In this document: piece after piece, positions 12,474-48,770 of the stretch
How positions within the stretch are numbered: position 1 is the stretch's first letter
Layout: every line of letters begins with the position of its first letter
NCBI GenBank assembly: GCA_037446635.1
Contig: JBBIIG010000004.1
Coordinates: 100,859 to 164,858 of the forward strand
DNA from: a bacterium
GTDB lineage: Bacteria > Zhuqueibacterota > Zhuqueibacteria > Oceanimicrobiales > Oceanimicrobiaceae
DNA length: 64,000 nt
Reading direction: 5' to 3'
Translations under genes and position numbers: made by a program
Notes under the pieces: generated by a model
Told to the model about the DNA's origin: nothing
The model's database searches: none
Seen by the model: only the letters and a program-made list of their open reading frames with translations

Positions 12474-12565
12474 ACGTGGAGTAATGGATTGATAGATTAG
12501 TGGATCAGTAATTTCAGTACTCCAGAACTCCATTAATCCATTGATCCATTAATCCACTTTATCCA
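12474..12565. repeat. Family A composite hairpin repeat (8-bp units with a TGGA core, then units with a TCCA core)
   Basis: Left arm gtggagta atggattg atagatta gtggatca ... ; right arm agtactcc agaactcc attaatcc attgatcc attaatcc. Confidence 0.55.
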
Positions 12566-12600
12566 ACTATGTCTGTCCTTTCCCAAAAGAATAGTTCAGA

Positions 12601-13425
12601 TTACAAGCTCCGGTCCGGCGGCCCATCATATTCTTGATTAGTGGGATCGATGACTCGCATCGGTTTGTAGCGTGTCTGTTCTTCAAACACGTGCGCCACC
12701 AGTCCGGGCGTGCGGGCAATCATAAAAAATGCATTGGCGAGTTTAGGCGAAAATTCCAGTTGACACAAAATAGCCGCGATGGCGCCGTCAACATTGATGG
12801 GCAGCGTTTTACCGGAATCTTGTTTCAAAGCTGTTTCAATGGCTTTCGCAATGGCGATGAACGTATCGCCGATTGCCCATTCTTCGCACAGTTGGAACAA
12901 CTTCGTCGTGCGCGGATCCTTTGTGTGCAGCCGATGTCCGAATCCCGAAATGCGACGTCCGGTTTCACGATACTCCTGCACGATCGTTTCCGCGGCTTTA
13001 TCAACCGAAAGCTGCTTCGACTTGCGGATTTCCTCGGTCTGCAGCAGCACCCCCATGCAGTCCTCGATGGCGCCGCCGTGAAAGCGCGAGATGGCGAGAA
13101 TACCGCCGGCCACCGCGGCATTGAGCGGCGCGCCCGTCGAGGCTACCGTGATCGCCGCCAACGCCGAGGGCGGCGTGGCGCCGTGATCGATGGACGACAC
13201 CAAAATCGCCTCGATTAGTTTGCCGACGTTTTCGGACGGCAGTTCTCCCTTCAGCGCCAAATATACCGCCTGCCCAAAAGAAATTTTTCCCATCAATTCG
13301 TCAAGCCGATACCCGCGCAGCCGCACTTCATTCGGCTTGACTTTCGAGATGGCGGTTTTCCAGCGTGTTTCTTCCATAGTCCTACCCTCTGCTTGGTTTT
13401 GTGACAGAGGTGTTGTCGGGCGCAA
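12601..13425 (-). CDS. Citrate synthase-family short protein, citryl-CoA lyase-like
   Basis: 274 aa; carries only the citrate-synthase C-terminal catalytic region (SGFGHRLHTKDPR, ...ARTPGLVAH...) and lacks the N-terminal CS domain. Confidence 0.65.
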   Translation of the reverse strand: MRPTTPLSQNQAEGRTMEETRWKTAISKVKPNEVRLRGYRLDELMGKISFGQAVYLALKGELPSENVGKLIEAILVSSIDHGATPPSALAAITVASTGAPLNAAVAGGILAISRFHGGAIEDCMGVLLQTEEIRKSKQLSVDKAAETIVQEYRETGRRISGFGHRLHTKDPRTTKLFQLCEEWAIGDTFIAIAKAIETALKQDSGKTLPINVDGAIAAILCQLEFSPKLANAFFMIARTPGLVAHVFEEQTRYKPMRVIDPTNQEYDGPPDRSL

Positions 13426-13426
13426 A

Positions 13427-13512
13427 GGTATAGGGTATAAGGTATAAGGTATAAGTGAAGGCGCGTTAACTACCTTATTCCCTTATACCCTTATACCCTA
13501 TACCCCCTTACC
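13427..13512. repeat. Composite hairpin of ggtataa units followed by ttatacc units
   Basis: aaggtatagggtataaggtataaggtataag-tgaaggcgcgttaacta-ccttattcccttatacccttataccctatacc; spans the stop of the upstream SucD-like gene and the start of the downstream lyase-like gene. Confidence 0.55.
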
Positions 13513-14403
13513 CGTCAGCACCTCCCCAGTCACTTTCGGAATATCATCGAACCGCTCAACGATATGCGCCCCCACTTCCCGCAGCCGCTTCACTTTACTT
13601 TCATGCGTGCCGCGATTGCCCTCGACGATGGCGCCGGCGTGCGAAAAACGCGTGCCCGACTTCGCCGCGGCACCGCCAATATAAGCAATCAGCGGTTTTG
13701 TGAAAAGTCCTTTTTCGATGAGATCGGCCACCCGTTCTTCCTGCGAGCCGCCGATCTCTCCGAACATGACAACAGCCTTCGTGTCGGGATCATTTTCGAA
13801 TAATTGCGCCACGTCCGGGTGCGGCGTGCCCACTATCACGTCGCCGCCCACGTGCACGATGGTGCTGAGTCCGATGCCGCTTTTGCTGAGATAATATGCA
13901 ATCGACGAGGTGATGCCGCCGCTGCGCGAGGTGACGCCGACGTTGCCCTTTTTGAACCACGCTTTCGCCGAGGCTGCGCGACCGCCCATCATTCCGAGCA
14001 CGCCTTTATCGACGCTGAGCAGTCCGAGGGTGTTGGGACCGACATAGCGCGCGCCGGCCTTTTTGGCAGCGTGCTCGATTTCGAGGACGTCGTAAATGGG
14101 CACGCGGTCCGGCACCAGCACCAGCAGTTTGATGCCGGCATCGATGGCTTCGAGGGCAGCGTTTTTCACCAGCGGCGCGGGAATGAAAATCACGGAGGCG
14201 TCAATCTGCCCGCACTTCTCCACGGCTTCTTTCACCGTGTCATAAACCGGCACACCCAACACATCCTGTCCACCGCGGCCCGGCGTGACGCCCGCCACGA
14301 CTTTCGTACCGTACTCCATCATCAGTTTGGTGCGCGCCATGCCTTCGCGGCCGGTGATGCCCTGCACGACGACGCGCGTGGTTTCGTTGACTAAGATGGA
14401 CAT
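13498..14403 (-). CDS. Succinyl-CoA synthetase alpha-like CoA-binding subunit (citryl-CoA synthetase small subunit-like)
   Basis: 301 aa; CoA-binding Rossmann N-terminus (VVVQGITGREG) and the phosphohistidine loop SGTRFSHAGAIVEG. Confidence 0.75.
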   Translation of the reverse strand: MSILVNETTRVVVQGITGREGMARTKLMMEYGTKVVAGVTPGRGGQDVLGVPVYDTVKEAVEKCGQIDASVIFIPAPLVKNAALEAIDAGIKLLVLVPDRVPIYDVLEIEHAAKKAGARYVGPNTLGLLSVDKGVLGMMGGRAASAKAWFKKGNVGVTSRSGGITSSIAYYLSKSGIGLSTIVHVGGDVIVGTPHPDVAQLFENDPDTKAVVMFGEIGGSQEERVADLIEKGLFTKPLIAYIGGAAAKSGTRFSHAGAIVEGNRGTHESKVKRLREVGAHIVERFDDIPKVTGEVLTGKGV

Positions 14404-14469
14404 AACCTAAATAACTCACAAGTTTTGAAATCCGACAACTTCGATGTTAATGAAGCTCTGTTGTTTAGA

Positions 14470-14553
14470 ATGTGGAGTAATGGAGTTTTGGATTAATGGA
14501 TCAATGACGAAAAAACTGCATTAATCCATTGATCCATCAATCCACTAATCCAT
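14470..14553. repeat. Family A composite hairpin repeat
   Basis: gtggagtaatggagttttggattaatggatcaatg ... cattaatccattgatccatcaatccactaatccat. Confidence 0.55.
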
Positions 14554-14583
14554 TTGCCTCAGTGTCCTTTAAGTCGTCCTGAG

Positions 14584-14991
14584 TTATCTCCGGTACGGTA
14601 ACAACTTTAATCCACTAATAAAATCATAATCGCGCCGATTCTTTGAAACAAAGGATAGATTCAAAGTCATTGCGGTTGCGGCAATCAAAGCGTCAGGTAT
14701 TGCTAATCCGTGACTCAATCGGTACTTGCGCAACAAATTGATCGCTTCGTCCGAGATTGACTCGGTAATTTTGAGGACCTGAAATCTTTTCAGAAAACGA
14801 TTTGTGTGTTGCAGCTCAGTTTTGTTTCGACAACCAACAATCAACTCCATTTCCGTTACAACACTGGCAGCCAGTTTTGATTCTTTCTCCGCTTCGTTCA
14901 AATAGTCAACAGCATCTTTGATTTTTCTTGCCGCATCAATCAGGATATCAGTATCAATAACAGTCAATTCATTCATCAACTGCGCTCCCAT
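14584..14991 (-). CDS. vapC: PIN domain toxin (VapC-like)
   Basis: 135 aa; the IDTDILID start and conserved acidic residues indicate a PIN domain. Confidence 0.7.
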   Translation of the reverse strand: MGAQLMNELTVIDTDILIDAARKIKDAVDYLNEAEKESKLAASVVTEMELIVGCRNKTELQHTNRFLKRFQVLKITESISDEAINLLRKYRLSHGLAIPDALIAATAMTLNLSFVSKNRRDYDFISGLKLLPYRR

Positions 14992-15215
14992 TCACGGCGC
15001 CGTAAGTTGCGCACCCATTCGGTGCTGTCCTTCATGTCCTCCCTATCCCGCCACATGCCGATGAATGGCTCGTCGCGTAATCGTGTCGGCTTGGTCTTCT
15101 TACTTGCTCTTTCTATTTGGTAGCGACTCTTCAAAAAAGCAACAAAATCCCTGACCTGCTTTTGCGCGTCAGGCGGTAAGGAAGCTATGTCTTCTATTAT
15201 TCTTGCTACTTCCAT
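14976..15215 (-). CDS. vapB: VapB-like antitoxin (DUF2281-like)
   Basis: The internal start MEVARIIEDIASLPPDAQKQVRDFVAFLKSRY gives an ~80 aa protein; the longer raw ORF overlaps the upstream ATP-grasp gene. Confidence 0.5.
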   Translation of the reverse strand: MEVARIIEDIASLPPDAQKQVRDFVAFLKSRYQIERASKKTKPTRLRDEPFIGMWRDREDMKDSTEWVRNLRRREWERS

Positions 15216-15216
15216 T

Positions 15217-16818
15217 TCAACCTCTTCGTTTAAAACTTCGTGTGCTTCGTGCCCTTCGTGGTTTTGCTCTTTTCTTAGTGGAACGCGTCCTTTCATTTCC
15301 ATCCAGCCCCGCAATCGGCAAATCGATATACGCCCCTTTGTTGCCGTGAAAGATGCATTCAATCTCGCACGCCAAACATTCGATGCACTTGCCGGCTTTT
15401 GCTTCTTCGCGGGTGATGGCCAGCACCGGCACATCTTTTTCCAATTTCAGAATTTCCGGGATGCAGCTCGACACGCAAATCTTGCTTTCGCATTTCAGAC
15501 AGGCGGCGTGATCGTAAGTGATCGAGCCGGTCAGCGTGGCGAATTTGTAAGGCTTCTTCGCTTTGGGTTTTTGAAATTTCTTTTTCGTCCGAGTTGGTTT
15601 ATATGAATCCACCAACGCGCGCAGCCGCTGGGCGCAGAACTCCGCGGAGTCATCTTTTTTGTAACCCTCGACCGGCGCGGGCAAATCTTTGGTGTAATTA
15701 GTGAGAATCTCAACGGCTTTGTCCTCGGCGTTGCCGCCCAAACGAATCACCGCCGGAATAGAAAGATTCTCTTCCCGGAACGCCTTTACCAGTCCGCGCG
15801 CGGAATGAAATTGTTCCTGACTGGCCACGCCCGATCCCGAGCCAAAATAGGCATCGATATTCTTTTGCGAAAGAATGATCTTCGCGGCGCGATAGACTTT
15901 CGACGCCGGGGGATTGCCGCTGGTGTCGGTGAAATTCGCGATTTTGAATCCCTGCCGCGTCACCGCGTCCATCGACATCATCGAGCCGCCGCCGCCCGCG
16001 CCATGAAATCCGATGTAACCCTCGCCCTTTTTGAAATTCTGCTCCATCTGGATGAAATAGAACGTGCCGCGATAATCGTTCTTCTCAACGTTGTAGGCGA
16101 TTTTGTCCAACTCCGTCGGCGGACGATCCAGCTCGCGGGCGATTTCGATGCCCAACTCCGGATGGCGAAACACCGCGTAATCATCCACGGTGATGCGGCA
16201 GTCCGCGGCAACAGGATCGCCATTTTCAACTATCACCAGCGGATTGATTTCCGCGGAACGCGCCTCGTACGTGCGCGCCACGTTCCACAGTTTCACCAGC
16301 ACGTCGGCCAACTTCGCTTGTGTCGCGCCAGTGATGCCAGTTTGGCGAATGAGATTGCGCGCCTGAAATTCTTTGAAGCCCTCGACGATATCGATGCCGG
16401 CTTTCGCGACTTTGTCCGGATGCGCGGCGGCAATTTCCTCGATGCCGGTGCCGCCAATCGCGCTGAAAATGATCACCGGCTGGCGCTCGCGATCATCGAT
16501 GATGATGCCCGTGTAAAATTCCTGTTTGATGCCGAGCTTCTCCTCCACCAGCACCTGATCCACCACAAAATTTTTGACCGCGAGTCCGAAAAGTTTTTTT
16601 GAAAGGCGCTTGGCTTCGGCTGGCGTGCTAGCAAATTGAATCCCGCCGATGCCGGCGCGGCCGGTGGTCCAAACCTGCGCTTTCAGTACGACAGGCTTGC
16701 CAATTTTCGTCGCCGCTTTAAAGACTTCTTCCGGAGTTTTGCACACACTACCGGCGGGCGTCGGTATTTTGGCGTTTCGTAGAAGTTCTTTGCCTTGATA
16801 TTCGTGGAGTCGGGCCAT
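15217..16818 (-). CDS. Succinyl-CoA synthetase beta-like ATP-grasp subunit with a C-terminal 2x[4Fe-4S] ferredoxin-like domain (citryl-CoA synthetase large subunit-like)
   Basis: 533 aa; SucC-like N-terminus MARLHEYQGKELL; the C-terminal ~80 aa carries CLKCESKICVSSC and CIECLACEIEC cysteine clusters. Confidence 0.7.
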   Translation of the reverse strand: MARLHEYQGKELLRNAKIPTPAGSVCKTPEEVFKAATKIGKPVVLKAQVWTTGRAGIGGIQFASTPAEAKRLSKKLFGLAVKNFVVDQVLVEEKLGIKQEFYTGIIIDDRERQPVIIFSAIGGTGIEEIAAAHPDKVAKAGIDIVEGFKEFQARNLIRQTGITGATQAKLADVLVKLWNVARTYEARSAEINPLVIVENGDPVAADCRITVDDYAVFRHPELGIEIARELDRPPTELDKIAYNVEKNDYRGTFYFIQMEQNFKKGEGYIGFHGAGGGGSMMSMDAVTRQGFKIANFTDTSGNPPASKVYRAAKIILSQKNIDAYFGSGSGVASQEQFHSARGLVKAFREENLSIPAVIRLGGNAEDKAVEILTNYTKDLPAPVEGYKKDDSAEFCAQRLRALVDSYKPTRTKKKFQKPKAKKPYKFATLTGSITYDHAACLKCESKICVSSCIPEILKLEKDVPVLAITREEAKAGKCIECLACEIECIFHGNKGAYIDLPIAGLDGNERTRSTKKRAKPRRARSTRSFKRRG

Positions 16819-16874
16819 CCGGGATTTCTCGTTTGGTTTGACGATTATTTCAAATTTAGCTATCTGTGCAAATC

Positions 16875-17447
16875 TTAGACTCTGAGCGTGCCGCGGAACC
16901 CTCTGGCGCCGTAATAAGATTCCGCACCGTTGTGATAGACGAAGACAGTGTTGTAGCGGCGATCACAGAAGAGCGCGCCGCCGAGTTTTCTAATATCAGC
17001 AGGTGTTTTCACCCAGCTCGACGTTTTCGTATCGAACTCTCCAAGTTTCTGCAGCTCCCGATATTGTTCTTCCGTTAAAATCTCAATGCCCATGTCAGCA
17101 GCCATATCCATAGCGCTAGCTTTTGGTTTATGTTCTTTCCTTGACTCCAGCGCTTCACGGTCGTAACAAACACTTCTGCGGCCTTTAGGAGTTTCCGCTG
17201 AACAATCAAAAAAAATGTAGTCGCCCTTTTTATCATAACCAACAACATCCGGTTCACCGCCAGTTCTTTCCATTTCATGGAGCGACCACAGTTTTTCGGG
17301 ATTAGCTTCCAGCTTTGCGTGTACTTTAGCCCATTCAAGACCTTTATGGCGGTTCATGTTTTTCTCAAAACGGGCTTTCAACACTCCGAGTAGATCTTCA
17401 CGTTGTTCTGGCGATAACGCCCTTTTATTGCTATTAAAGTTCTTCAT
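16875..17447 (-). CDS. DUF4256 domain-containing protein
   Basis: 190 aa; MKNFNSNKRALSPEQREDLLGVLKARFEKNMNRHKGLEW...MERTGGEP resembles DUF4256 family members. Confidence 0.45.
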   Translation of the reverse strand: MKNFNSNKRALSPEQREDLLGVLKARFEKNMNRHKGLEWAKVHAKLEANPEKLWSLHEMERTGGEPDVVGYDKKGDYIFFDCSAETPKGRRSVCYDREALESRKEHKPKASAMDMAADMGIEILTEEQYRELQKLGEFDTKTSSWVKTPADIRKLGGALFCDRRYNTVFVYHNGAESYYGARGFRGTLRV

Positions 17448-17455
17448 ACTTTTAG

Positions 17456-18197: not shown

Positions 18198-18539
18198 CTA
18201 TGCAGGACGATTTATTCGCAAAAGCTTACGCTTGAGGGTCTTTTGCGTTTTTATTGCGTCATGAATTCTTTTAGCCAGCGCCAGAAAATTTAGATCGAAT
18301 GAACAAACAATAATGCCTTCGTGATCCGTCATCGATCCATGCAATTTAACAAAATGCTTTCGATTAATAGTCAACAAAGCTCTTTGATCTTTGGTGGCCT
18401 CACTGAGAACTTCTTCATCAGGCAACGCTTGTTGGGCTTTTCCGGTCTCTTGAATAGTGATTACATCATGACCCAATCTGCGAAGTTCCTCAACCGCGGG
18501 ATAAGGAAAATTCTCGTTGGCATATAGGCGCGCCATCAT
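18198..18539 (-). CDS. DUF5615 family PIN-like protein (putative toxin partner of DUF433)
   Basis: 113 aa; MMARLYANENFPYPAVEELRRLGHDV... matches the DUF5615 pattern; overlaps the DUF433 gene by 4 nt. Confidence 0.55.
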   Translation of the reverse strand: MMARLYANENFPYPAVEELRRLGHDVITIQETGKAQQALPDEEVLSEATKDQRALLTINRKHFVKLHGSMTDHEGIIVCSFDLNFLALAKRIHDAIKTQKTLKRKLLRINRPA

Positions 18540-18889
18540 GCCTCCTCGTTCTCCCGAATTTGCTGCTCGATCTCATCGCGATGGGCCCGCACATAAGCCC
18601 ATGCGTTGACCAAATCTTCCGCACGAAGCGTCGGATAACTTCTCAGCAATTCTGCCTCGGTTGCGCCAAGTCGCCTCGCTTGCTCAAGCAGCCAGACCGG
18701 AATACGAGTTCGCACAATTCGCGGCTCGCCACCACAAACACCGGGCGTGCTCTCGATACCGGGAAACGAATCGCCTAAATCTTGCACAACCCATTGCAGC
18801 AATTCTGCTTTTTCAGCACGCGTCAGAGTTGACAGCAGTTCTTTTGCTTTTTCAGTGTTGGTCATTTTTAGCCCTGAATGAATGAACAT
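18536..18889 (-). CDS. DUF433 domain-containing protein (putative antitoxin)
   Basis: 117 aa; PGVCGGEPRIVRTRIPVWLL is the DUF433 core. Confidence 0.6.
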   Translation of the reverse strand: MFIHSGLKMTNTEKAKELLSTLTRAEKAELLQWVVQDLGDSFPGIESTPGVCGGEPRIVRTRIPVWLLEQARRLGATEAELLRSYPTLRAEDLVNAWAYVRAHRDEIEQQIRENEEA

Positions 18890-19135
18890 TCACGCCGCTT
18901 CTAAAGAACGGACACTGAACACTTCACTTTCTTTCAGCGGTTCAATTTCGGTCTCCGAGACCGTCACCACAGCAATCGTTTCTCCAAGCGCATTGAATAC
19001 TTCCAATGAGTACCCATCTTCAGTAGTACTCTATGGGTGGTATTCCACAATTGTTGCCACATCCCCCCTCTTCAGTCTCTTTTCGGGGAAGTCCCGAAGC
19101 AAGACAACCTCGCTGAATAATTCGTGCTTCATCAT
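18890..19135 (-). pseudogene. DUF4926-like small protein interrupted by an in-frame TAG
   Basis: Own translation: MMKHELFSEVVLLRDFPEKRLKRGDVATIVEYHP*STTEDGYSLEVFNALGETIAVVTVSETEIEPL; the in-frame amber codon is at 19031-19033. Confidence 0.45.
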
Positions 19136-19304
19136 CAACTCACTTCTCTCGACGCTCACTGGATTTAGACTCCATGCTCGGCCCGCCAAGAAATTCCCAG
19201 CGCAATGAATGTAAGAGAATTGAATTCCAAAGCCATTTGTTCCGTGTGGGATTACTTGGCAAAAACCGCACGGAGAAAAATCCCGCGCGAGCAGACGGGC
19301 ATCG

Positions 19305-19350
19305 CTCCACTACTCCAGAACTCCAACACTCCATTAATCCACTAATCCAT
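19305..19350. repeat. Family A repeat, right-arm half copy
   Basis: ctccactactccagaactccaacactccattaatccactaatccatc immediately downstream of lpdA. Confidence 0.45.
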
Positions 19351-20750
19351 CAAATATGAATCGCCTCTCCCATCGCATCCGCAGCCGCTTCCATCACCGC
19401 TTCCGTGAGCGTCGGGTGCGCGTGGATGGTATGGAAAATTTCCTTCGGCGTGGATTCCAAAGTTTTCGCTATTCCCAGCTCAGCAATCATATCCGTGGCC
19501 TCGCTGCCGATGATATGAGCGCCTAACAGCTCGCCGTACTTGGCGTCGAAAATCAATTTCACCATGCCTTCGGTTTCGCCCACCGCAATCGACTTTCCCA
19601 AAACCCGAAACGGAAACTTGCCAACTTTGATCTCGCGTCCGCCCTCTTTCGCCTTCGCCTCGGTCATACCGATGCTCGCAACTTGCGGCTGGCAATAGGT
19701 GCAGCTCGGAAAATTCGAGTAGTCCACCGGCTTCGGCGATTTTCCCGCGATATTTTCGGCGCAGCAAATTCCCTCTGCGGAGGCCACGTGCGCCAGCAGC
19801 GGCGGGCCGATGACGTCGCCAATTGCCCAAATGCCCTCGACGTTCGTCTGATATTTCTCGTTCACTTTGATGAAGCTCTTTTCGATCTGCACGCCAAGTT
19901 CCTCCAAACCCAAACCGCTGGTGAAGCCACCGAATCCCACCGCCATCAGCGCCATGTCGCCAGTGAGCTCCTGACTGCTGCCTTTCTTGTCGCCGACTTT
20001 CACCGTCACCCCTTTGGCCGAAGTTTTGACGCTCTCGACTTTGGTTTCAGTGAGAATTTCGATGCCGCTTTTTTTGAACGACTTTTGCAGAATGTCCACA
20101 ATTTCGGAATCCTCAAACGGCAGAATTTGCGGCAGCATTTCGACGATGGTGCACTTCACGCCAAACGCGTTGTAGAAATAAGCGAACTCCACGCCAATCG
20201 GTCCGCCGCCGATGATGATCAGCGACTTGGGCAGTTCCTCCAGCACCAAAGCCTCGCGACTGGAAATCACTTTCTTTTTATCAATCTCAACTCCCGGCAA
20301 TGAGCGCGTGAAGCCCCCAGTCGCGACGATGATGTGTTTCGTAGTAACCGCTTCAGCGGTTCCATCGCTTTTGGAAATCTCGACAGTGTTTTTTTTCGCG
20401 ATACGTCCCGTCCCCGTGAAATGCTCGATCTTGTTTTTGCGCATCAAGAACTCGACGCCTTTGCTGAGCCGGTCCGCCGCCGCGCGGCTGCGTTTGACGA
20501 TTTTCTTCGGATCGTATCCGACTTTTTCCACACTCAAGCCGTACTCGTCCGCGTGCTGAAACATGCGATACACCTCGGCGCTGCGCAGCAACGCCTTACT
20601 GGGAATGCAGCCCCAGTTCAAACACAAGCCGCCGAGCCGCTCCTTTTCAACGATGGCGCATCTGAGTCCCAACTGCGAGGCGCGGATGGCCGCCACGTAT
20701 CCGCCGGGTCCGCCGCCGATGACCGTAACATCGAATTCCTTATTTGCCAT
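19350..20750 (-). CDS. lpdA: Dihydrolipoyl dehydrogenase (E3)
   Basis: 466 aa; FAD-binding VIGGGPGGY, the redox disulfide GGLCLNWGCIPSK, and a C-terminal HAHPTLTE. Confidence 0.9.
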   Translation of the reverse strand: MANKEFDVTVIGGGPGGYVAAIRASQLGLRCAIVEKERLGGLCLNWGCIPSKALLRSAEVYRMFQHADEYGLSVEKVGYDPKKIVKRSRAAADRLSKGVEFLMRKNKIEHFTGTGRIAKKNTVEISKSDGTAEAVTTKHIIVATGGFTRSLPGVEIDKKKVISSREALVLEELPKSLIIIGGGPIGVEFAYFYNAFGVKCTIVEMLPQILPFEDSEIVDILQKSFKKSGIEILTETKVESVKTSAKGVTVKVGDKKGSSQELTGDMALMAVGFGGFTSGLGLEELGVQIEKSFIKVNEKYQTNVEGIWAIGDVIGPPLLAHVASAEGICCAENIAGKSPKPVDYSNFPSCTYCQPQVASIGMTEAKAKEGGREIKVGKFPFRVLGKSIAVGETEGMVKLIFDAKYGELLGAHIIGSEATDMIAELGIAKTLESTPKEIFHTIHAHPTLTEAVMEAAADAMGEAIHI

Positions 20751-27274: not shown

Positions 27275-27340
27275 GTTGTCAACATGAAAGTTGGCAGTTG
27301 ACAATTGGCAATTCACCATTCACAATTCACCATTGACCAT
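27275..27340. repeat. Family B repeat
   Basis: agttggcagttgacaattggcaattcaccattcacaattcaccattgaccattg. Confidence 0.5.
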
Positions 27341-27783
27341 TGCGTGAAAATCAAATTTATACCATTGGGCATTCCACCCACGCCATCGAAACATTTCTCG
27401 GCTTGCTGCACAGGCACGGCATCAAATGTGTGGTCGATATTCGCCGATTCCCGACCTCCCGCAAACATCCGCAATTTTTGAAAGAGAATTTGGTGCAGAG
27501 TTTAACGCAAACCGGCATCAACTATGTTTGGCTGGGCGGGCAATTGGGCGGATTTCGAGACGGCGGTTACGAAGTCTACCTCGCAACCGATTCATTTCAA
27601 AAAGGTTTAACAGAATTGATGTTACTGGGCAGTCAGCAGCCGACGGCGTTTCTCTGCGCCGAGGCGCTGTATTTTCGCTGCCACCGTCGCTTCATCGCCG
27701 ATGAATTGACGCGGCAAAATTGGCGTGTGCTGCACATCCTGCCCGACGGCAAGCTTCACGAACATCCCGCGAGTCTCTTATGA
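27340..27783 (+). CDS. DUF488 domain-containing protein
   Basis: 147 aa; IYTIGHSTH...FCAEALYFRCHRRFIADEL fits the DUF488 pattern. Confidence 0.6.
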   Translation: MRENQIYTIGHSTHAIETFLGLLHRHGIKCVVDIRRFPTSRKHPQFLKENLVQSLTQTGINYVWLGGQLGGFRDGGYEVYLATDSFQKGLTELMLLGSQQPTAFLCAEALYFRCHRRFIADELTRQNWRVLHILPDGKLHEHPASLL

Positions 27784-30795: not shown

Positions 30796-30901
30796 TGTGA
30801 CGACGTTACTCAAAAATTGGAGAGAAAAGAACAACGATCCCATTCAACGCGTAAGCTCTCGTCCGGATTTAGATTTTTCTAACCCAAACAATCTCACTCC
30901 C

Positions 30902-32257
30902 ATGCCCCAACACACCATCCTCATCATCGACGATGAACCCAAGATGTGCAAAGTGCTGAAATTCGCGCTGGAGCCGGAGGGCTACGCCGTCGCCACGGCG
31001 GAGAACGCAGAAGCCGGCCTCGAGCTGTTTTCCAAAAATTCGTTCGACCTCGTCATCACCGATCTCAAAATGCCGGGCAAAGACGGCCTGCACGTTTTGG
31101 GCGCGGTAAAAAAGCAGCGTCCGGAAACCGAGGTGATCATGATGACCGCCTACGCCACGGCGCAGAACGCCGTCGAGGCCATGAAAAAGGGCGCGTACGA
31201 CTACATCATCAAGCCGTTCGAGATGGATGAGCTGAAGCTCAAAGTCCGCCACATTATGGAAAAGCGCAAGCTGGTGGAAGAAAATGTCCATCTCAAAAAG
31301 GAGTTGAAAAATCGTTACTCTCTCGAAAACATGGTGGGACAAAGCGGCGTCATGCAGGAGGTGTATAAGTTGGTGGAGAAAGTCGCGGGCGCCGACGCTA
31401 CGGTTTTGATTCGCGGGGAAAGCGGCACCGGCAAAGAACTGGTGGCGCAGGCCATCCACCATTTGAGTCCTCGGGCCAGCGAGCCGTTCATCCCGGTAAA
31501 TTGCGCAGCGCTGCCGGACAATCTGCTGGAGAGCGAGCTCTTTGGCCACGAAAAAGGCGCGTTCACCGGCGCGGACAAAATGAAGCCCGGTCGCTTCGAG
31601 TTGGCCGGCGCTGGCACCATCTTTTTGGATGAAATCGGCGACATCTCCCCTTCCACGCAAATCAAGCTGCTGCGCGTTTTGCAGAACAAAACCATTGAGC
31701 GGCTCGGCGGCGTCAAGACCATCGACGTGAAAGCCCGCACGATCTGCGCCACGAATCGCCATCTCGAACAAGCTCTCAAAGATCGCACCTTCCGCGAAGA
31801 TTTGTACTACCGCATCAACGTTTTTCCCATCACCCTCCCTCCGCTGCGCGATCACAAAGAAGATATCCCTGATCTTGTGGCGCACTTTCTCAAGAAATTC
31901 GGCGGCGACGGCGCGGCCATCGATGGCAAAGCGCTGAGCCTGCTGATGAAATATCACTGGCCCGGCAACGTCCGCGAATTAGAAAACACCATTGAGCGGG
32001 CGCTGATTCTTTCCGGCACAGGCAAGATTCACGAGCAGGACATTCCGCCGCACATCCGCACTCTGCCTTCGACGGCGGTGGGAAGCGACTCAATTGAAAT
32101 TCCCAAAGAAGGACTCTCGTTGGAAGAGGTCGAAAAGAATCTCATTCGCGACGCCATCGCCAAAGCCGGCGGCAACAAAAGCAAAGCCGCCAAATTGCTG
32201 GGCATCACGCGGCGCAAGCTCTACTCGATGATGGAGCGGCTGGGGTTGAGCCTCTGA
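30902..32257 (+). CDS. Sigma-54-dependent response regulator (NtrC family: REC + AAA+ sigma54 activator + Fis-type HTH)
   Basis: MPQHTILIIDDEP... receiver domain; GESGTGKE Walker A; GAFTGA sigma54-contact motif; C-terminal HTH. Confidence 0.9.
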   Translation: MPQHTILIIDDEPKMCKVLKFALEPEGYAVATAENAEAGLELFSKNSFDLVITDLKMPGKDGLHVLGAVKKQRPETEVIMMTAYATAQNAVEAMKKGAYDYIIKPFEMDELKLKVRHIMEKRKLVEENVHLKKELKNRYSLENMVGQSGVMQEVYKLVEKVAGADATVLIRGESGTGKELVAQAIHHLSPRASEPFIPVNCAALPDNLLESELFGHEKGAFTGADKMKPGRFELAGAGTIFLDEIGDISPSTQIKLLRVLQNKTIERLGGVKTIDVKARTICATNRHLEQALKDRTFREDLYYRINVFPITLPPLRDHKEDIPDLVAHFLKKFGGDGAAIDGKALSLLMKYHWPGNVRELENTIERALILSGTGKIHEQDIPPHIRTLPSTAVGSDSIEIPKEGLSLEEVEKNLIRDAIAKAGGNKSKAAKLLGITRRKLYSMMERLGLSL

Positions 32258-32422
32258 GTTACTGGAGTACTGGATTGGTGGATTCGTGAACGAGTACGTA
32301 CAAACCGAAGTGTACTTTTGGGGTCATTTCATTGCCTCTGAAAAAACACTGCTCCAAAAGTGTCCTCTTTAAGTGCGGAATTTACAATTTCATAAAACCC
32401 ACGAGAGTTTCGAGGCCCTCGC

Positions 32423-32474: not shown

Positions 32475-33992
32475 ATGTTCAAATTCGCAGTTAAAATTTC
32501 GCTAATTATCATCTGCCTCTGCTCAATAGCCTTCGCGCAAAATCCCAACCTCGGTGAGTTGCGCAGTCTGCTGGCACGGCTCGACGTCGAGCTGGAAAAA
32601 GCGCGGGACTTAATCCGCTCGTTTGACAACCGCGACGCCCAGGTTTTACTCGCCGAGACAGAAAATCTCCGCAACCAAGCAGCCGACATCCTCGCGAAGT
32701 CCGACCCCCGCCCTGCGGAATTGCTCGAGGCTCGGCGTCATCTCCAAGCCGCGCGCATGAAATTAGAACAAGCTGTCAAACTCACTCTGGAAGGCACCAT
32801 CAGAAGGTGGCGCAGTCGGCTGGAGCAGCTCCTGCAGCGGGCGGATCAGGAGGTCATTGGCAGCAACCACCCGGAGGCGGAGCGGCTGCTGCAATTGGCC
32901 AAGCAGCACCGCGACGCGGCCGATCGCGAGCTGAGCAATCGCGCGGTGCAAAAAGCGCTCGAGCATCTGCGGGTGGCGGTCAACTTAACGGAACAGGCAC
33001 TTGATTTGGCTACTCGCAAGCTTGATGCCTTTCATGAAGAAGGTCGGCGCTTCGATACTCTGCGCGAGCGCGCCCGCGAGCTGGTGGAAAAAAGCTCGAA
33101 CACGCGCGCCCGGGTTATTTTCAACCAGGCCGAAAAAATGGCCGAATCGGCGCTGCAAGCCTTCCGCAACGGCAACCCCCAGCTTTCCAAAAAATTTTAT
33201 AATCAGGCGATTCTGCTTTTGCTGCGGGCAATGGATGTCGCAAAAGGCCAGTCAACAGAAACAGTGGATCAGGTGAGCCTGGCCCTATATCGACTGCGGG
33301 AGTCCATCGACAATTTTAAAAATACGCTCCAACCCAATGCGCCGGCGCGGGTGCAGCTAATTGTCGAAAGAGCCCGGCGGCTGGCGACGGAAGCGGAGTT
33401 GGCGGCGCAGCAAGGCCGCAGCCACGAAGCGCTTTGGAAAATCGAACTGGCAGAAAGCTTGGTGAAGCGTGCGCAGCGTTTGGCAAACGATCGCGGCGGC
33501 GGAAGATTGGCCAATCGCATCGCCGAGGAAATTGAAAATACCCGGCAGGACATCGTGGACGTCCGCGGCGATTTGAGCCTCGAAACTTCCCCCGACGCCG
33601 AAATTCTCGTGAGCATGGCCGAGCTCGCCCTCGCCAAAGGGGAGCAGGCGGCGACGGCCGGCGCCGACCGTTTCGCTCTGGAAGCGGTGCTCGTCGCCCA
33701 GCGCCTCCTCACCAAAGCCGAGCGCATTTTGAATAAACAGGACGTCAACGGTTTCTCGAAAGAGCGCGTGGAAGCGCGGCTGGCGCAGTTGGATGAGGCG
33801 ATGGCCGAATCCGAAAGCCGCATCGATTTGGCGAAAGATGAATGGGCGCGCCGGCTGCTGCTGAGCGCAAAAGAGTTTCGGCGATTGGCAGCCGAATCGC
33901 TGCAAAAAGGGAATTATCACGCCGCCGACGAAGGCGTGCAAGTGGCGTTCGATCTGCTCAGGAAGAGTTTAAAAAATGTCCCGAACAATTAA
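32475..33992 (+). CDS. Secreted alpha-helical tandem-repeat protein (hypothetical)
   Basis: 505 aa; signal peptide MFKFAVKISLIIICLCSIAFA; 6-7 degenerate ~60-aa helical repeats, each with an ...A(E/R)xLL...A...L...A... pattern. Confidence 0.5.
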   Translation: MFKFAVKISLIIICLCSIAFAQNPNLGELRSLLARLDVELEKARDLIRSFDNRDAQVLLAETENLRNQAADILAKSDPRPAELLEARRHLQAARMKLEQAVKLTLEGTIRRWRSRLEQLLQRADQEVIGSNHPEAERLLQLAKQHRDAADRELSNRAVQKALEHLRVAVNLTEQALDLATRKLDAFHEEGRRFDTLRERARELVEKSSNTRARVIFNQAEKMAESALQAFRNGNPQLSKKFYNQAILLLLRAMDVAKGQSTETVDQVSLALYRLRESIDNFKNTLQPNAPARVQLIVERARRLATEAELAAQQGRSHEALWKIELAESLVKRAQRLANDRGGGRLANRIAEEIENTRQDIVDVRGDLSLETSPDAEILVSMAELALAKGEQAATAGADRFALEAVLVAQRLLTKAERILNKQDVNGFSKERVEARLAQLDEAMAESESRIDLAKDEWARRLLLSAKEFRRLAAESLQKGNYHAADEGVQVAFDLLRKSLKNVPNN

Positions 33993-34027: not shown

Positions 34028-34172
34028 GGATTAATAGATCAATGGATTAATGAAGTTTGGCGCAGAGCGACAGGCGTGGAGCGTAGAGCTTCAGATACCG
34101 ATCCGCTTCGCGGAAAAGAGCATGGTGCGCTTCATCCACCACTCCATCAATCCATTACTCCACAAGTGATAA
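34028..34172. repeat. Family A composite hairpin repeat with an extended GC-rich centre
   Basis: ggattaatagatcaatggattaatgaag ... (centre) ... cttcatccaccactccatcaatccattactccac. Confidence 0.5.
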
Positions 34173-42719: not shown

Positions 42720-42795
42720 GCAGTAAGCAGTTGGCAATTGGCAGAGAAAAGTTGCCTACTGCTTACTGCTTACTGCTAACTGCCAACTGCCAACT
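42720..42795. repeat. Family B composite hairpin repeat
   Basis: gcagtaagcagttggcaattggcag-agaaaagttgcc-tactgcttactgcttactgctaactgccaactgccaac. Confidence 0.55.
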
Positions 42796-43655: not shown

Positions 43656-43656
43656 A

Positions 43657-43851: not shown

Positions 43852-43868
43852 TACTAACTGCACAGAGT

Positions 43869-44155: not shown

Positions 44156-44163
44156 TTACAGCC

Positions 44164-45246: not shown

Positions 45247-45292
45247 ATGGATTGATGAATTAATGTCTCTGCCTTCATTAATCCATCAATCT
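45247..45292. repeat. Family A hairpin between convergent genes
   Basis: tggattgatgaattaatg-tctctgcc-ttcattaatccatcaatc. Confidence 0.55.
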
Positions 45293-45315
45293 CGTTAGTC
45301 TATTTTGTAAACCCC

Positions 45316-45807
45316 TCACTTTTCCGATCCGGAGGTTTTCTGCAATTGCCTGAGCGGCAAAACCGTCGTCTCCTTCGGGCTGGAGAGCACCACGCTGGTG
45401 CGGGTGCTCAACACTCCCGGCCACGACTGGATTCGCGACAGCAAACTCTCCAGCGCCGACGTGTTTTGGGTTCGTACTTTTAACAGGTGCGAACCCTCAC
45501 CAGTGATGGCGTGGCATTCGAGGATTTCGTCCTCTTTCTGCGCGTGCTCGATCACTTTCGGATAAGACTTGGAGGATTCGGTGGTGATGAAAATAAACGC
45601 CGTCACCTCCAACCCCACTTTGCGAGCGTCTAATATCGCGTTGAAACTTCGGATGACGCCGTCCTCTTCCAACTTCCGCAGGCGCTCACTGATCGAAGGG
45701 ATCGACAGCCCCACTTTTTCCGCCAGCTCGTTGCGTTTGGTGCGGCCGTGAGCCTGCAAAATGGTCAGCAGCGTCAGGTCGGTTTCATCAAATTTGTGTG
45801 TGTGCAT
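45316..45807 (-). CDS. Lrp/AsnC family transcriptional regulator
   Basis: 163 aa; HTH LDETDLTLLTILQAHGRTKRNELAEKVGLSIPSISERLRKLEEDGVI plus a RAM domain. Confidence 0.85.
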   Translation of the reverse strand: MHTHKFDETDLTLLTILQAHGRTKRNELAEKVGLSIPSISERLRKLEEDGVIRSFNAILDARKVGLEVTAFIFITTESSKSYPKVIEHAQKEDEILECHAITGEGSHLLKVRTQNTSALESLLSRIQSWPGVLSTRTSVVLSSPKETTVLPLRQLQKTSGSEK

Positions 45808-47102
45808 CAGGTCAACTCTTTTGGAATTTCAGCGCCGTTGTTTTTGGTTTTAGCGCCGGCGTTTTGCAAAAGCCCCGGCAGATCCAATCCCGTCGCATTT
45901 TTCAACTGCTCGATCAGCGTGATCGCCGAGCCGGTCAGATTTTTCACGTGCGTCGGCAAGCCGTTGCCGTTTCCGGAATCCAGCACCGTCAATTTTTCGA
46001 TGTGTAGGTTGTCAGCAACCACTTTGGTAACTTTATCGAGAAGCTCCGGCAGCATTTGGATGAGGAACAGCTCGCGGGTTTTACCATCCTTCCACTGTTC
46101 CTGCATCAGTTTGATGGCCTCGGCGGTGGCTTTGCCGTCTTCTAAAATTTTGGCGGCCTCGCCCTGCGCTTTTAGTTCTTCCGCCTGCTTCTCAGCTTCG
46201 GCGGGCACCACCACTTCTGCCAGATACTTTTTGCGATTCAGCTCCACGCGGCCGGCTTCTAATTTTTTCTCTTCTTCCACTTTGGCGATTTCTCCCGCAA
46301 CTTTAGCGCGCTGTTCAGCGCGGTTGGTTTCCGCGGCCAAATTGGCGCGATGAACGTGTAACTTATTTTCCGCCTCGGTGATGACCATCTCGGCTTCGGC
46401 CTCCGCCACACTGCCTTTGCGTTTCTGTTCGGCTGAAACGACCCGCGCCTCGGCTTCGGCGGTGGCCTCGGCGATGCGGGCGTTTTTCACCACTTCCGCA
46501 TTTTTCTTGCGGCCGATGGCTTCGAGGTAACCCTGGTCGTCGGAGATATTTTGGATGCGGATGAAATCCAGCACCAGTCCCAATTTCTGCAGATCTTTGC
46601 GCGCCTGCTCCGCCACCTGCTCGGCGATCTCCATGCGCTGGGCGTTGGCTTCCTCGGGCGTGACCGTCGCCAGCACGCCGCGCAAACTGCCTTCGATGGT
46701 CTCTTTAGCCACTTGTGAAATTTCATTGAGATTCTTACCAAGAAAACGCTCGATGGCGTTGGAGAGTCCATCTTTTTCGCTGCCAGCAATTTTCACGTTG
46801 GCGCGGCCATCCACGTTGATGGGGATGATGCCTTTCGCCAGCGCTTTGGTGATGTTGATGGCGATGGGAATGTTGTTGAGCGGCAGCCGCTGCACCGATT
46901 CGATGATGGGCAGCTTGAAGCCCCGTCCCCCTTTGATGACGCGATAACCAACGAACGAGCCATCGGGTAATTTGCGCCGGCGCCCGGAGATGATGAGCAC
47001 CTCATTGGGCTGGCAAATCACCAAATTGGCTTTAATGAAAACGATGACTAGCATCATGGCGATGATCCCCGCGCCAATGCCGATGCCGATGAATTGTGAC
47101 AT
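45807..47102 (-). CDS. Flotillin-like SPFH/band-7 protein
   Basis: 431 aa; N-terminal TM; SPFH domain; a long Ala/Glu-rich coiled-coil repeat region (AEAEARVVSAEQKRKGSVAEAEAEMVITEAE...). Confidence 0.8.
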   Translation of the reverse strand: MSQFIGIGIGAGIIAMMLVIVFIKANLVICQPNEVLIISGRRRKLPDGSFVGYRVIKGGRGFKLPIIESVQRLPLNNIPIAINITKALAKGIIPINVDGRANVKIAGSEKDGLSNAIERFLGKNLNEISQVAKETIEGSLRGVLATVTPEEANAQRMEIAEQVAEQARKDLQKLGLVLDFIRIQNISDDQGYLEAIGRKKNAEVVKNARIAEATAEAEARVVSAEQKRKGSVAEAEAEMVITEAENKLHVHRANLAAETNRAEQRAKVAGEIAKVEEEKKLEAGRVELNRKKYLAEVVVPAEAEKQAEELKAQGEAAKILEDGKATAEAIKLMQEQWKDGKTRELFLIQMLPELLDKVTKVVADNLHIEKLTVLDSGNGNGLPTHVKNLTGSAITLIEQLKNATGLDLPGLLQNAGAKTKNNGAEIPKELT

Positions 47103-47145
47103 ATCTGCCTCCTGTTACGGGTTCAAGTTTTTTTGAAAATCAACT

Positions 47146-48585
47146 CTAACAATCAAAATACAACGCGAACTCGCTGGGATGCGGCCGCAAGCGAATGTAA
47201 TCGATCTCGCGCGCGCGTTTGTAATCGAGCCAGACGCGAATCAAATCCTCGGTGAACACTCCGCCTTTGAGCAAGAATTCATGATCCTGCTCCAACGCGC
47301 TCATGGCTTCTTCAAGCGAACCCGGGGTGCCTTTTATTTTCTTGCCGTTTTGATGGGCGAGTTCGTAAATGTCCTCGTCAATCGGCGGCGGCGGCTGGAT
47401 ACGGTTTTGAATGCCGTCGATTCCCGCCATCAATATTGCAGCGAATGCCAGATACGGATTGCAGGTTGAATCCGGCGTGCGGAACTCGATACGCTTGGCT
47501 TTTTCGCTGCCGGAATACATCGGCACGCGCACGCAGGCGCTGCGGTTGCGCTGCGAATACACCAGGTTGATGGGCGCCTCATAGCCAGGCACCAGCCGGC
47601 GATAGGAATTCGTCGTCGGCGCGCAGAGAGCACACAGCGCGTGGGCATGATGGAGCAACCCGCCAATAAAATGCTCCGCGATCTCGCTCAACTCGGCGTA
47701 GCGTCCGGTTTGATAAAACAAGTTGCGGCCGTTCTTCCACAGACTGATGTGCACGTGCATACCGGAACCGTTATCCTGAAACAGCGGCTTGGGCATGAAG
47801 GTGACGGTTTTGTTGTAACGTCGCGCCACGTTTTTGATCACGTATTTATACTTCAGCGCGCGGTCAGCCATGCTCACCAGCGTATTGAAGCGGATACCGA
47901 TTTCCGACTGTCCGCCTGAAGCCACCTCGTGGTGATGCACTTCGGCTTCCACGCCCACAGAGCGCAGCACGCTCACCATTTTCGAGCGCAGGTTTTGATA
48001 GGTGTCCGTCGGCGGTACCGGAAAATAGCCTTCTTTCTGGCGGGTTTTGTAACCGAGGTTGGGTTTTTCCTTGCGGCCGGTGTTCCACGCCCCTTCATCG
48101 GAGTCGAGAAAAAAATAGCCCTGGTTGGTACTCTGATGATATCGCACTTCATCAAAAATAAAAAACTCTAATTCCGGCCCGTAGTACGAAACATCGGCGA
48201 TGCCGCTGGTCACGAGATAACGCTCGGCGCGTTGAGCTACGGCGCGGGCGTCGCGGGAATAGATTTTGTGCGTCTGCGGATCTTTGATGTTGCACAAAAA
48301 CGACAGCGTGGGATCGTCCATGAACGGATCGACGAACATGGTGCTGCGATCCGGCACCAGCAGCATGTCGCTTTCGTGAATGCGCTGGAAGCCGCGGATC
48401 GACGAGCCGTCAAAGCCAATACCGTCCACAAAAACCCGCTCATCGAACACTTCGATGGGGATGGTGGTGTGCTGCAGCACGCCCGGTAAATCCACAAACT
48501 TGAAATCGACGAAGCGGATTGCTTGCTCCTTAATGGAGCGCGCCACTTCGCGGGTGGTGATCGTTTCGCCGTTTGTAAAGCTCAT
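47146..48585 (-). CDS. glnA: Glutamine synthetase, type I
   Basis: The start MSFTNGETITTREVARSIKEQAIRFVDFKFVDLPG matches a GS-I N-terminus. The raw ORF's 42-aa N-terminal extension is just translated repeat DNA and is rejected. Confidence 0.9.
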   Translation of the reverse strand: MSFTNGETITTREVARSIKEQAIRFVDFKFVDLPGVLQHTTIPIEVFDERVFVDGIGFDGSSIRGFQRIHESDMLLVPDRSTMFVDPFMDDPTLSFLCNIKDPQTHKIYSRDARAVAQRAERYLVTSGIADVSYYGPELEFFIFDEVRYHQSTNQGYFFLDSDEGAWNTGRKEKPNLGYKTRQKEGYFPVPPTDTYQNLRSKMVSVLRSVGVEAEVHHHEVASGGQSEIGIRFNTLVSMADRALKYKYVIKNVARRYNKTVTFMPKPLFQDNGSGMHVHISLWKNGRNLFYQTGRYAELSEIAEHFIGGLLHHAHALCALCAPTTNSYRRLVPGYEAPINLVYSQRNRSACVRVPMYSGSEKAKRIEFRTPDSTCNPYLAFAAILMAGIDGIQNRIQPPPPIDEDIYELAHQNGKKIKGTPGSLEEAMSALEQDHEFLLKGGVFTEDLIRVWLDYKRAREIDYIRLRPHPSEFALYFDC

Positions 48586-48639
48586 TTTTATTTCTCTCCA
48601 TAAGTTTTGAATATAGTCAATAGTCAGATAGAGGCAAAT

Positions 48640-48770
48640 AGGTGGAGTATTGGAGTATTGGAGTATTGGAGTATTGGAGTATTGGAGTATTGGATCAATG
48701 TCAAACTTCATCCATTATCTCATTGATCCATTCATCCATCAATCCAGTACTCCATTACTCCAGCACTCCA
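48640..48770. repeat. Family A composite repeat: 5x tandem tattggag octamers, then 8x TCCA-core octamers
   Basis: ggtggag tattggag x4 tattggat caatg ... tcatccat tatctcat tgatccat tcatccat caatccag tactccat tactccag cactccac; sits in the glnK-glnA spacer. Confidence 0.6.

Follow-up and report, generated by a model that had tools for sequence, protein, structure and literature searches.

Inverted octamer arrays dispersed at operon junctions and their possible kinship with PF05635 cassettes

The DNA analysed here (the window, a 64-kb stretch of contig JBBIIG010000004.1) is a chromosomal core-metabolism segment that carries nuo genes, a 2-oxoacid dehydrogenase E1 gene and genes for PrpD, isocitrate dehydrogenase (IDH), LplA, lpdA, aconitase and amtB-glnK-glnA. 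It also holds citryl-CoA synthetase/lyase-like genes (ccsA-ccsB-ccl), a gene for a protein sorted by the type IX secretion system (T9SS) and small toxin-antitoxin (TA) genes at operon junctions. Seven loci in this segment (E1 to E7, together family A; Table 1) carry short arrays of tandem octamers in which units with a TGGA core (F units) can be followed by complementary units with a TCCA core (R units). We describe their sequence and folding, their recurrence in other phyla and around genes of the PF05635 family, and their gain and loss among relatives. The nearest named relatives of the IDH of the window are Calditrichota and KSB1 metagenome-assembled genomes (MAGs; 81-83% identity), and the host appears to be a Calditrichota/KSB1-like bacterium.

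Family A in the window

The arrays of family A were read at the seven coordinates named in a preliminary description of the window, and the sequences match that description. The unit arrays are TGGA[G/T]TRN octamers and/or their complements at all seven loci, and in the full copies runs of TGGAGTAn/TGGATnAn octamers are followed by complementary nTACTCCA/nTnATCCA runs. A search of the window with three TGGAKYNN units followed by TGGA (at most one mismatch) gave 19 matches, where 100 shuffles predict 0.00, and every match falls within six of the seven loci; a looser octamer pattern gave 29 matches against 0.25 expected. Tandem Repeats Finder (TRF) reported period-8 arrays at five loci (12529, 14473/14519, 19312/19330, 34135 and 48643-48770). 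The copy density of the family is seven in 64 kb.

A long imperfect hairpin had been attributed to every copy. This holds for E1, E2 and E7 and for the short E6, which was missed by the pattern search yet folds; it fails for the solo arrays E3 and E4, and E5 as a whole is not significantly stable. Likewise, the five tandem copies previously counted at 48643-48690 are a real array with one copy too few, since E7 holds six full units, reported by TRF as 6.5 perfect copies of TGGAGTAT at 48643-48694. Loops of the window copies measure 9-32 nt (75 nt in E5) and contain no open reading frame (ORF) or remnant of one.

The seven copies lie 0, 0, 5, 5, 30, 35 and 35 nt past a stop codon. The flanking genes are co-directional at six of the seven and convergent at one, and no copy (0 of 7) lies in a divergent promoter region. 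The intra-operon positions given earlier were correct: one copy separates glnK from glnA, and another separates the PIN/VapC gene from the SucD-like (CcsB-like) gene. E1 and E2 are alike beyond their perfect units, having decayed outer units in common (0 of 200 shuffles reach the score). The copies are therefore related by descent and not only by low complexity, and the possibility that they would prove unrelated on alignment is answered in the negative.

Table 1. Family-A copies (E1 to E7) and sister hairpins of other unit families in the window; fold intervals are in window coordinates
Feature	Coordinates	Strand	Architecture	Setting	Fold
E1	12474..12565		full hairpin; F arm 12477-12508 = TGGAGTAA TGGATTGA TAGATTAG TGGATCAG; 9-nt loop; R arm 12518-12565, 6 units	between ccl-like gene (stop 12601) and HD gene (start 12430)	12470-12570: -34.2 kcal/mol, z -5.8
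E2	14470..14553		full hairpin; 4 units in each arm (F 14473-14504, R 14521-14552) around a loop	begins 30 nt past PIN gene stop, ends 67 nt ahead of ccsB-like start	14466-14558: -32.2 kcal/mol, z -5.5; further z value -6.4
E3	19302..19349	-	solo array, 6 units, F-type TGGAKTNN on lpdA-like coding strand; no partner arm	adjoins lpdA-like stop codon (19350-19352)	not significant, z 0
E4	32263..32290	+	solo F-type array, 3-4 units	5 nt past stop of sigma-54 response-regulator gene (30797-32257)	not significant, z -0.2
E5	34028..34172		F arm 34028-34059, 4 degenerate units; GC-rich insert of about 75 nt; R arm 34131-34162, 4 units	35 nt past stop of ORF 32475-33992, upstream of T9SS-sorted protein gene	not significant, z -1.55 (whole element)
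E6	45247..45292		short hairpin, about 2 units per arm: TGGATTGA TGAATTAA ... TTCATTAA TCCATCAA	directly 3' of esterase stop codon; esterase and AsnC genes convergent	z -4.6
E7	48640..48770		largest copy; on the + strand 6 x TGGAGTAT plus TGGATCAA, loop, 6-8 complementary units	5 nt past glnK stop (48776), 55 nt ahead of glnA start (48585)	48636-48775: -65.8 kcal/mol, z -11.1
Family B	13425..13511		hairpin; AAGGTAT heptamers and CCCTTATA-type complements	overlaps ccsB-like stop, between ccsB-like and ccl-like genes	z -5.9
Family C	42727..42795		hairpin; GCAGTAA/GCAGTTG heptamers and CTGCTTA/CTGCCAA complements	PaaB-like/PaaA-like intergenic spacer	z -3.8

Besides families B and C, a direct array of TTGGCAA/ATTCACC heptamers lies 3' of dapF (27291-27341); it was left out of the hairpin elements because it is a direct array without a fold. 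An Rfam scan of the 64-kb window returned no RNA family and no rRNA. The ORF between E4 and E5 (32475-33992, 505 aa) was considered as possible cargo of a disrupted element; it matches no Pfam, NCBIfam or PADLOC family, and HEPN similarity is at most weakly indicated (E 0.03). In ccsA, a CACGAAG(G) tandem repeat at the 3' end (15236-15260) makes the basic C-terminal tail longer than in the relative L121. This repeat is a slippage expansion within the coding sequence, and its reading as the F array of an antitoxin/PIN cassette was rejected in favour of such a local expansion of the coding tail. The split ATP-citrate-lyase-type set to which ccsA belongs (ccsA-like, ccsB-like and ccl-like; 12601-16818) suggests reverse tricarboxylic acid cycle or citrate-cleavage capacity.

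Octamer hairpins across phyla and arrays around PF05635 genes

Public genomes were scanned for the octamer pattern with one genome per species, which gave at least 120 loci. Among the matches listed, the octamer hairpin is found in more than 12 phyla, namely Desulfobacterota, Verrucomicrobiota, Bacteroidota, KSB1, Planctomycetota, Armatimonadota, Nitrospirota, Chloroflexota, Gemmatimonadota, Chlamydiota, Cyanobacteria and others, and the median distance to the incoming stop codon is about 21 nt. Taking the window together with the 120 genome loci listed, 44 pairs have the TGGA array 5' of the TCCA array and 2 have the reverse order. Among the same listed matches the loops of F-to-R pairs fall into sizes of 2-104 nt (40 pairs) and 443-490 nt (4 pairs). 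Units follow the consensus TGGA[G/T]T[R][W], with a purine at position 7 in 87% of units although the pattern had left that position free. An explanation of the polarity by stop codons in all three frames was dropped, given other unit families (GGAGGCAA) that contain no stop codons.

All four long-loop cases enclose an ORF of PF05635 / TIGR02436 ("23S rRNA intervening-sequence protein", a four-helix bundle) whose closest solved structure is 2GSC. Family-A arrays directly adjoin 7 of the 9 PF05635-like ORFs present in 0.9 Mb of pattern-selected loci. In 20 strains the element reads (TGGAGTRN)x4, 6 nt, an ORF of 143 aa from ATG to stop, 12 nt and (NYACTCCA)x5-9, and among strains with an identical PF05635 protein (P0046, L490-L499) the R array has 6, 7, 8 or 9 units. 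Because the polarity is fixed, the coding strand always presents F array, gene and R array in that order. The PF05635 proteins flanked by TGGAGT units form one subfamily (identities of 72-84% in Desulfobacterota, 56-62% in Bacteroidota and 39-43% in Verrucomicrobiota) and share only 25-36% identity with PF05635 proteins flanked by other units. The PF05635 subfamily and its unit family are transmitted jointly across phyla.

A less biased sample consisted of loci fetched solely via CcsB homology (L171, L177 and L182). Here 5 of 5 PF05635 ORFs have reverse-complementary flanks with 8-9-nt periodicity (z 11-20), built from units that differ from those of family A (RRAGGAAGY/CTCCTCAAC and GGAGGCAR/TTGCCTCC). 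The cassettes lie directly upstream and downstream of a CoA-ligase alpha-subunit gene, the 3' one beginning at the stop codon of the gene and the 5' one ending 9 nt before its ATG; these sites correspond to the same junctions in a homologous operon that is probably of the sucCD type. In annotated plasmids PF05635 genes are mostly cyanobacterial and co-oriented between operon genes. In 5 of 7 plasmid cases purine-rich tandem 7-8-mers are found upstream, mostly adjoining the ATG, and the arrays past the stop are their complements by score (z 2.3-10.5). A sixth, from Nostoc punctiforme, was recognised by eye (TCAGGAG x5 versus CTCCTGA/CTTCTGG/ATTCTGA), its z being only 0.1 because the R units run into the stop codon. 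Array-flanked PF05635 genes were also seen inside CRISPR-Cas operons, at cas6|cas4 in Anabaena sp. 90 (pANA02, L525) and at cas10/cmr2|cmr3 on a plasmid of Picosynechococcus PCC 7003 (L526). A tie of PF05635 to defence systems was considered and set aside, as there was no PADLOC match.

The Azospirillum lipoferum copy of PF05635 lies inside the large-subunit rRNA (RF02541, 523 bits) and has repeated arms of the same polarity and a terminal stem with z -11.4, so a genuine 23S rRNA intervening sequence (IVS) has the layout of the array class. Loaded elements in mRNA spacers fold as panhandles in which the arrays pair across the ORF. Other 7-9-nt units in the same layout flank PF05635 genes of unrelated loci, those of cyanobacterial plasmids and that of the Azospirillum IVS. 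The inverted short-unit arrays are a class found in many phyla, whose loaded members hold PF05635 exactly between a purine-rich 5' array and a pyrimidine-rich 3' array. We found no paper in which inverted tandem arrays or cargo-less derivatives are linked to PF05635 genes; coverage of the literature was incomplete and an earlier description is possible.

Three further observations concern the octamer arrays as such. Where F units end in A and are followed by TG (for example at 14473-14504 of the window and at 2463-2500 of L490), they contain overlapping minimal ORFs, ATG-GAG-TAA or ATG-GAT-TAA, each preceded by the GGAG of the previous unit; as read from the sequence, these could form a start-stop ribosome trap. 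Three linear viral contigs of about 12-14 kb that end in sequencing adapters (L416, L440 and L453; IMGVR_UViG_3300045988_106389, _132319 and _133957) have terminal inverted repeats in which, about 45 nt in from either end, 6-8 GTGGTAAA octamers stand in tandem. Their units point inward, matching the family-A layout at genome scale, and the contigs are probably complete because their ends carry adapters. Finally, a Metamycoplasmataceae MAG contig (L100, CBDHHR010000034.1) holds kilobases of nearly pure TCCAACAC octamer satellite, with 691 pattern matches in 8 kb.

Gain, loss and slippage among relatives

Relatives of the window were gathered via its CcsB-like, IDH and GlnA proteins. Identities are 94% aa for L121, 80-84% for L122-L127 and L145, and 97% aa (IDH) and 80-89% nt for L510. 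In L121-L127 and L145 the ccsA-ccsB-ccl-HD genes are tightly packed with gaps of 3-60 nt. The same junctions of the window are occupied by an antitoxin and PIN module plus E2 (ccsA|ccsB), by family B (ccsB|ccl) and by E1 (ccl|HD). E1 is absent at ccl|HD, a 3-nt gap, in L121, L125, L126 and L510; the E2 junction is only 20-40 nt long in close relatives; nothing lies downstream of lpdA, the E3 position, in L510; and family B is not found at ccsB|ccl in L121-L127 and L145. L510 has neither a family-A nor a family-B element at its ccs junctions and carries at ccsB|ccl an unrelated 124-nt palindromic insert (8010-8134) with the arms tgtcatcgcgag...ctcgccgtgaca. At the same junction L124 has a 2-unit TGGAAT-type mini-hairpin (1125-1206), and a peptidase gene occupies it in L128 and L141. 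Across the CcsB-anchored loci (about 0.5 Mb) and in L510-L515, family-A arrays are missing.

Other sites are shared by some of the relatives. At glnK|glnA, a 6-unit F array with a decayed R remnant sits exactly at the E7 position in L520 and L521 (GlnA 95%), only a deletion remnant is left in L519 (GlnA 97%), and a small GC hairpin with TTTT behind it, terminator-like in form, takes the place of E7 in L516 and L518 (GlnA 98%). Orthologues of E6 with 2-3 units per arm are present in L516, L517 and L519 and those of family C, with other unit numbers, in L516 and L519; L520 has neither. From these differences at orthologous junctions, the elements are gained or lost between species-level relatives and then inherited vertically, and resident elements change fast by whole-unit slippage, decay of an arm and deletion.

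Both origins offered in the preliminary description find a counterpart here. Its suggestion of slippage holds for array length, as seen in the 6 to 9 units among strains with identical flanking genes, in the orthologues and in E7. Its suggestion of a mobile micro-element is supported indirectly, by the empty orthologous junctions of close relatives and by the paralogy of E1 and E2 beyond their arrays. The comparison of presence and absence that it had called for gives E1, E2 and E3 as missing in the closest relatives and E6 and E7 as present in some and missing in others.

Small TA-type genes in the window are an antitoxin and PIN pair (14584-15214), DUF433/DUF5615 (18198-18889), DUF2442 (2003-2296) and a HicB-like gene (10987-11310). 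Such genes at one operon junction vary between close relatives (L510, L512, L513, L516 and L520): the antitoxin/PIN pair at ccsA|ccsB of the window is matched in L510 by a different TA pair, BrnT plus partner, and the position of DUF433/DUF5615 differs between L510 and L513. The operon junctions occupied by TA genes look like recurrent landing sites for small cassettes. A DUF4926-like small gene on the minus strand (18890-19137) is broken by an in-frame stop and is probably a pseudogene; L510 has an uninterrupted orthologue (3197-3442), annotated as PF16277.

Proposed operon punctuation, rival explanations and known systems

We consider it probable (about 0.6) that all seven loci carry copies of a single dispersed palindromic element, without cargo and of an IVS-like class with PF05635-loaded members, and that the element acts as RNA punctuation in operons. 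We infer that the window copies are the cargo-less members of this PF05635/IVS-like cassette class. In a polycistronic transcript the two arrays would pair into an imperfect duplex of 30-55 bp, which could serve as a site of double-strand-specific (RNase III-type) processing or as a barrier to exonucleases. Such punctuation would make the elements tolerable to the operons that house them, as intervening sequences are tolerated in rRNA. They may spread by a copying mechanism of unspecified kind, possibly in trans from PF05635-carrying relatives elsewhere in the genome.

Several results weigh against the cargo-less IVS-like element. Among the ORFs of the 64-kb window, Pfam searches found no PF05635 gene, transposase, reverse transcriptase or IS200-like TnpA-REP transposase of the REP-associated tyrosine transposase (RAYT) type (PF01797; REP, repetitive extragenic palindromic). 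PF05635 remnants are missing from the loops of 24 cargo-less hairpins, E5 included, and a miniature inverted-repeat transposable element (MITE)-like internal deletion of loaded elements was rejected for that reason. No target-site duplication was seen at the filled and empty ccl|HD and ccsB|ccl junctions, and the DNA inserted at ccl|HD reaches 35 and 45 nt past the E1 arrays. The variable positions of the two arms agree at 0.634 versus 0.644 in unit-order shuffles; each arm behaves as if its units had been drawn independently from a common pool, and unit-by-unit complementarity was dropped as covariation support for the stem. In a complete scan of viral contigs the TGGA core gave 115 loci versus 40-41 for permuted-core controls (an AGTG control, which overlaps the TGGA family by rotation, gave 97). 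Arrays of arbitrary octamers are common, and raw match counts were rejected as proof that TGGA is special. Part of the cross-phylum recurrence could be convergence on purine-rich units resembling Shine-Dalgarno (SD) sequences.

Four other explanations were weighed. The loci might be microsatellites that arose in situ, each by independent slippage of a local 8-nt unit such as an SD-stop-start junction (GGAGTAATG), with neither transposition nor a relation to PF05635. The rapid change in unit number between strains, the six identical units of E7, the solo arrays E3 and E4, the frequency of arbitrary-octamer arrays in public data and the likeness of F units to SD plus stop/start junctions all fit this account. 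It leaves unexplained why one unit family recurs at seven loci with inverted arms and a polarity of 44:2, why E1 and E2 share decayed flanking units and why the same arms surround a specific PF05635 subfamily in three phyla; in addition, relatives at 80-89% nt identity have no family-A arrays at the ccs-operon and lpdA junctions and carry arrays only at the glnK|glnA and AsnC|esterase sites. We regard it as rather improbable. An explanation in which the octamer is a protein-binding site, on DNA or RNA, for a multimeric nucleoid or "global regulator" protein or for a pentameric PF05635 ring, with the hairpin as a by-product, is unlikely to a lesser degree. It would account for arm complementarity no better than shuffled (a constraint on unit sequence rather than on pairing), the fixed polarity, the 3-7 units per arm and the co-variation of PF05635 subfamily with unit family. 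Moreover, the solved relative 2GSC is described as a pentameric toroid (PMC4990558), and Aklujkar et al. (2009, PMC2700814) took analogous paired tandem-repeat sites for places where a regulator or IHF/HU binds. Binding arrays are harder to reconcile with the lack of a known binding protein and of a PF05635 gene in the window, an 8-bp period out of phase with the DNA helix, the extreme stability of the folds, and sites that lie past stop codons instead of in promoter regions (0 of 7 in a divergent intergenic region).

That the elements are ordinary factor-independent terminators or attenuators built from repeats is the explanation to which we give least credence. The position just past stop codons, including that of E6 between convergent genes, would suit a terminator, as would the small GC hairpin with TTTT found exactly at the E7 site in L516/L518. 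Among the matches listed, however, T-runs are rare, following just 4 of the 40 hairpins, or 6 of them when the opposite strand is read, so the hairpins are not classical terminators. No consensus terminator was predicted at E1, E2, family B or E7, and an intrinsic terminator of GC stem and U/T tract was rejected on these two counts; several copies also lie between genes that need co-expression (ccsA-ccsB-ccl), and the same arms enclose an ORF in loaded elements. A translational device has a chance we put on the low side, similar to that of the microsatellites. Here F arrays would be tandem SD-like sites (GGAG) that catch terminating ribosomes and R arrays anti-SD-like (CUCC) masks, coupling or throttling the next cistron or the PF05635 gene. 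F arrays do start 0-5 nt past stop codons and run up to the ATG that opens the PF05635 ORF; in the loaded elements read, F units are purine-rich, most with a GGAG, GGAGG or AGGA core, with CTCC or CCTCC in the R units; and solo arrays directly past a stop codon are F-type in 12 cases versus R-type in 4. About half of the window units, however, are TGGAT and not SD-like, nor are the family C units (GCAGTAA), and Bacteroidota, a phylum that relies little on SD sequences, carry the elements as well.

A wider proposal is possible but doubtful. Inverted arrays, purine-rich 5' and pyrimidine-rich 3', with PF05635 might be hitherto unrecognised pan-bacterial, promoterless selfish cassettes of operon stop/start junctions, including those of CRISPR-Cas operons, of which rRNA IVSs would be a minority and cargo-less hairpins those left behind or mobilised in trans. 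They might partly account for the cyanobacterial short tandemly repeated repetitive (STRR) heptamers and the Geobacter sites discussed below. A PF05635 pentamer would recognise the arrays and, like its relative Avd in diversity-generating retroelements, might act via an RNA intermediate.

To our knowledge, decades of cataloguing short tandem 7-8-nt intergenic repeats (STRR, long simple sequence repeats, TAACTGA, Geobacter sites) have led to no accepted origin or function. PF05635/four-helix-bundle proteins are, as far as we know, among the most abundant uncharacterised small-protein families, with known roles only as the 23S IVS ORF and, distantly, as Avd of diversity-generating retroelements. 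One architecture now joins intergenic short-unit repeats, PF05635 and 23S IVSs, and it is present in the cultured strains Nostoc punctiforme PCC 73102, Anabaena sp. 90, Picosynechococcus PCC 7003 and Azospirillum lipoferum 4B. If the RNA-level role is true, it would mean widespread punctuation of operon transcripts, and the expression of core genes, glnK-glnA and the citryl-CoA genes among them, would vary rapidly through slippage. The elements also account for assembly breaks, for spurious ORFs that begin in arrays and for flanking genes that vary at their C-terminal ends. As kinds, intergenic palindromic repeats and IVS-type elements are already known; what is new is a testable, possibly general tie to an abundant protein family.

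Among known systems, the claim that family A is unlike REP elements, bacterial interspersed mosaic elements (BIMEs) and CRISPR proved right. CRISPR consists of 24-47-bp repeats with unique spacers, whereas family A consists of contiguous octamers without spacers. Like REP, BIME and REPIN elements, family A is made of high-copy extragenic palindromes past stop codons and inside operons, and a protein-coding "master" copy shares flanking repeats with the non-coding ones. It differs in having tandem octamers of variable unit number in place of a conserved GTAG-type head or a single 20-40-bp palindrome, and its linked gene encodes a four-helix-bundle protein of about 120-145 aa, not an IS200-like HUH enzyme. 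With MITEs it shares small size, lack of coding sequence, dispersal, inverted ends, presence/absence polymorphism and longer relatives with the same ends; unlike MITEs, it has no target-site duplication, transposase-encoding parent or internal remnant of a longer form, and its longer relatives encode PF05635 in place of a transposase.

Cyanobacterial STRR heptamers and 5-11-nt long simple sequence repeats (Mazel 1990 and Mrazek 2007, as cited in PMC4679880) and TAACTGA repeats (MacGregor 2015), patchy in Cyanobacteria, Bacteroidota and Beggiatoaceae and of unknown function with slippage invoked (PMC4679880), are likewise tandem 7-8-nt intergenic units, often beside start codons and polymorphic in unit number. 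They are described as direct arrays, and inverted pairing, fixed polarity and PF05635 cargo are not part of their definition. The "global regulator binding sites" of Geobacter metallireducens (classes 1-3) are opposite-strand pairs of 3-5 tandem 7-9-nt units each, located "3' of gene X / 5' of gene Y" and also within operons such as proBA, and were taken by their authors for sites of IHF/HU-like proteins (Aklujkar et al. 2009, PMC2700814). Their architecture is identical to that of family A, with variable spacing and intergenic or intra-operon location, and the class-3 unit MTYCTGA equals the R unit that flanks the N. punctiforme PF05635 gene. The units themselves differ (GTTGCTYN, TCTCCGTSY and MTYCTGA), and the authors made no link to PF05635, hairpins or IVSs.

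The 23S rRNA IVSs with an S23p/PF05635 ORF occur in Leptospira, Coxiella and alphaproteobacteria (Warrier et al. 2016, PMC4990558). They are regarded as selfish, with mobility unknown, and as tolerated because RNase III excises them (PMC4990558); PF05635 has been described as Avd-like (PMC10053308). An IVS lies in helix 25 or 45 of 23S rRNA and can hold a PF05635 gene in its loop, whereas the window copies lie in mRNA spacers between protein genes, have no ORF and have arms that are regular arrays of 3-8 octamers. In both, the terminal inverted sequences form a long stem (z -5.5 to -11 for E1, E2 and E7 of the window), and the Azospirillum IVS has a purine-rich repeated 5' arm and a pyrimidine-rich complementary 3' arm, the polarity of family A.

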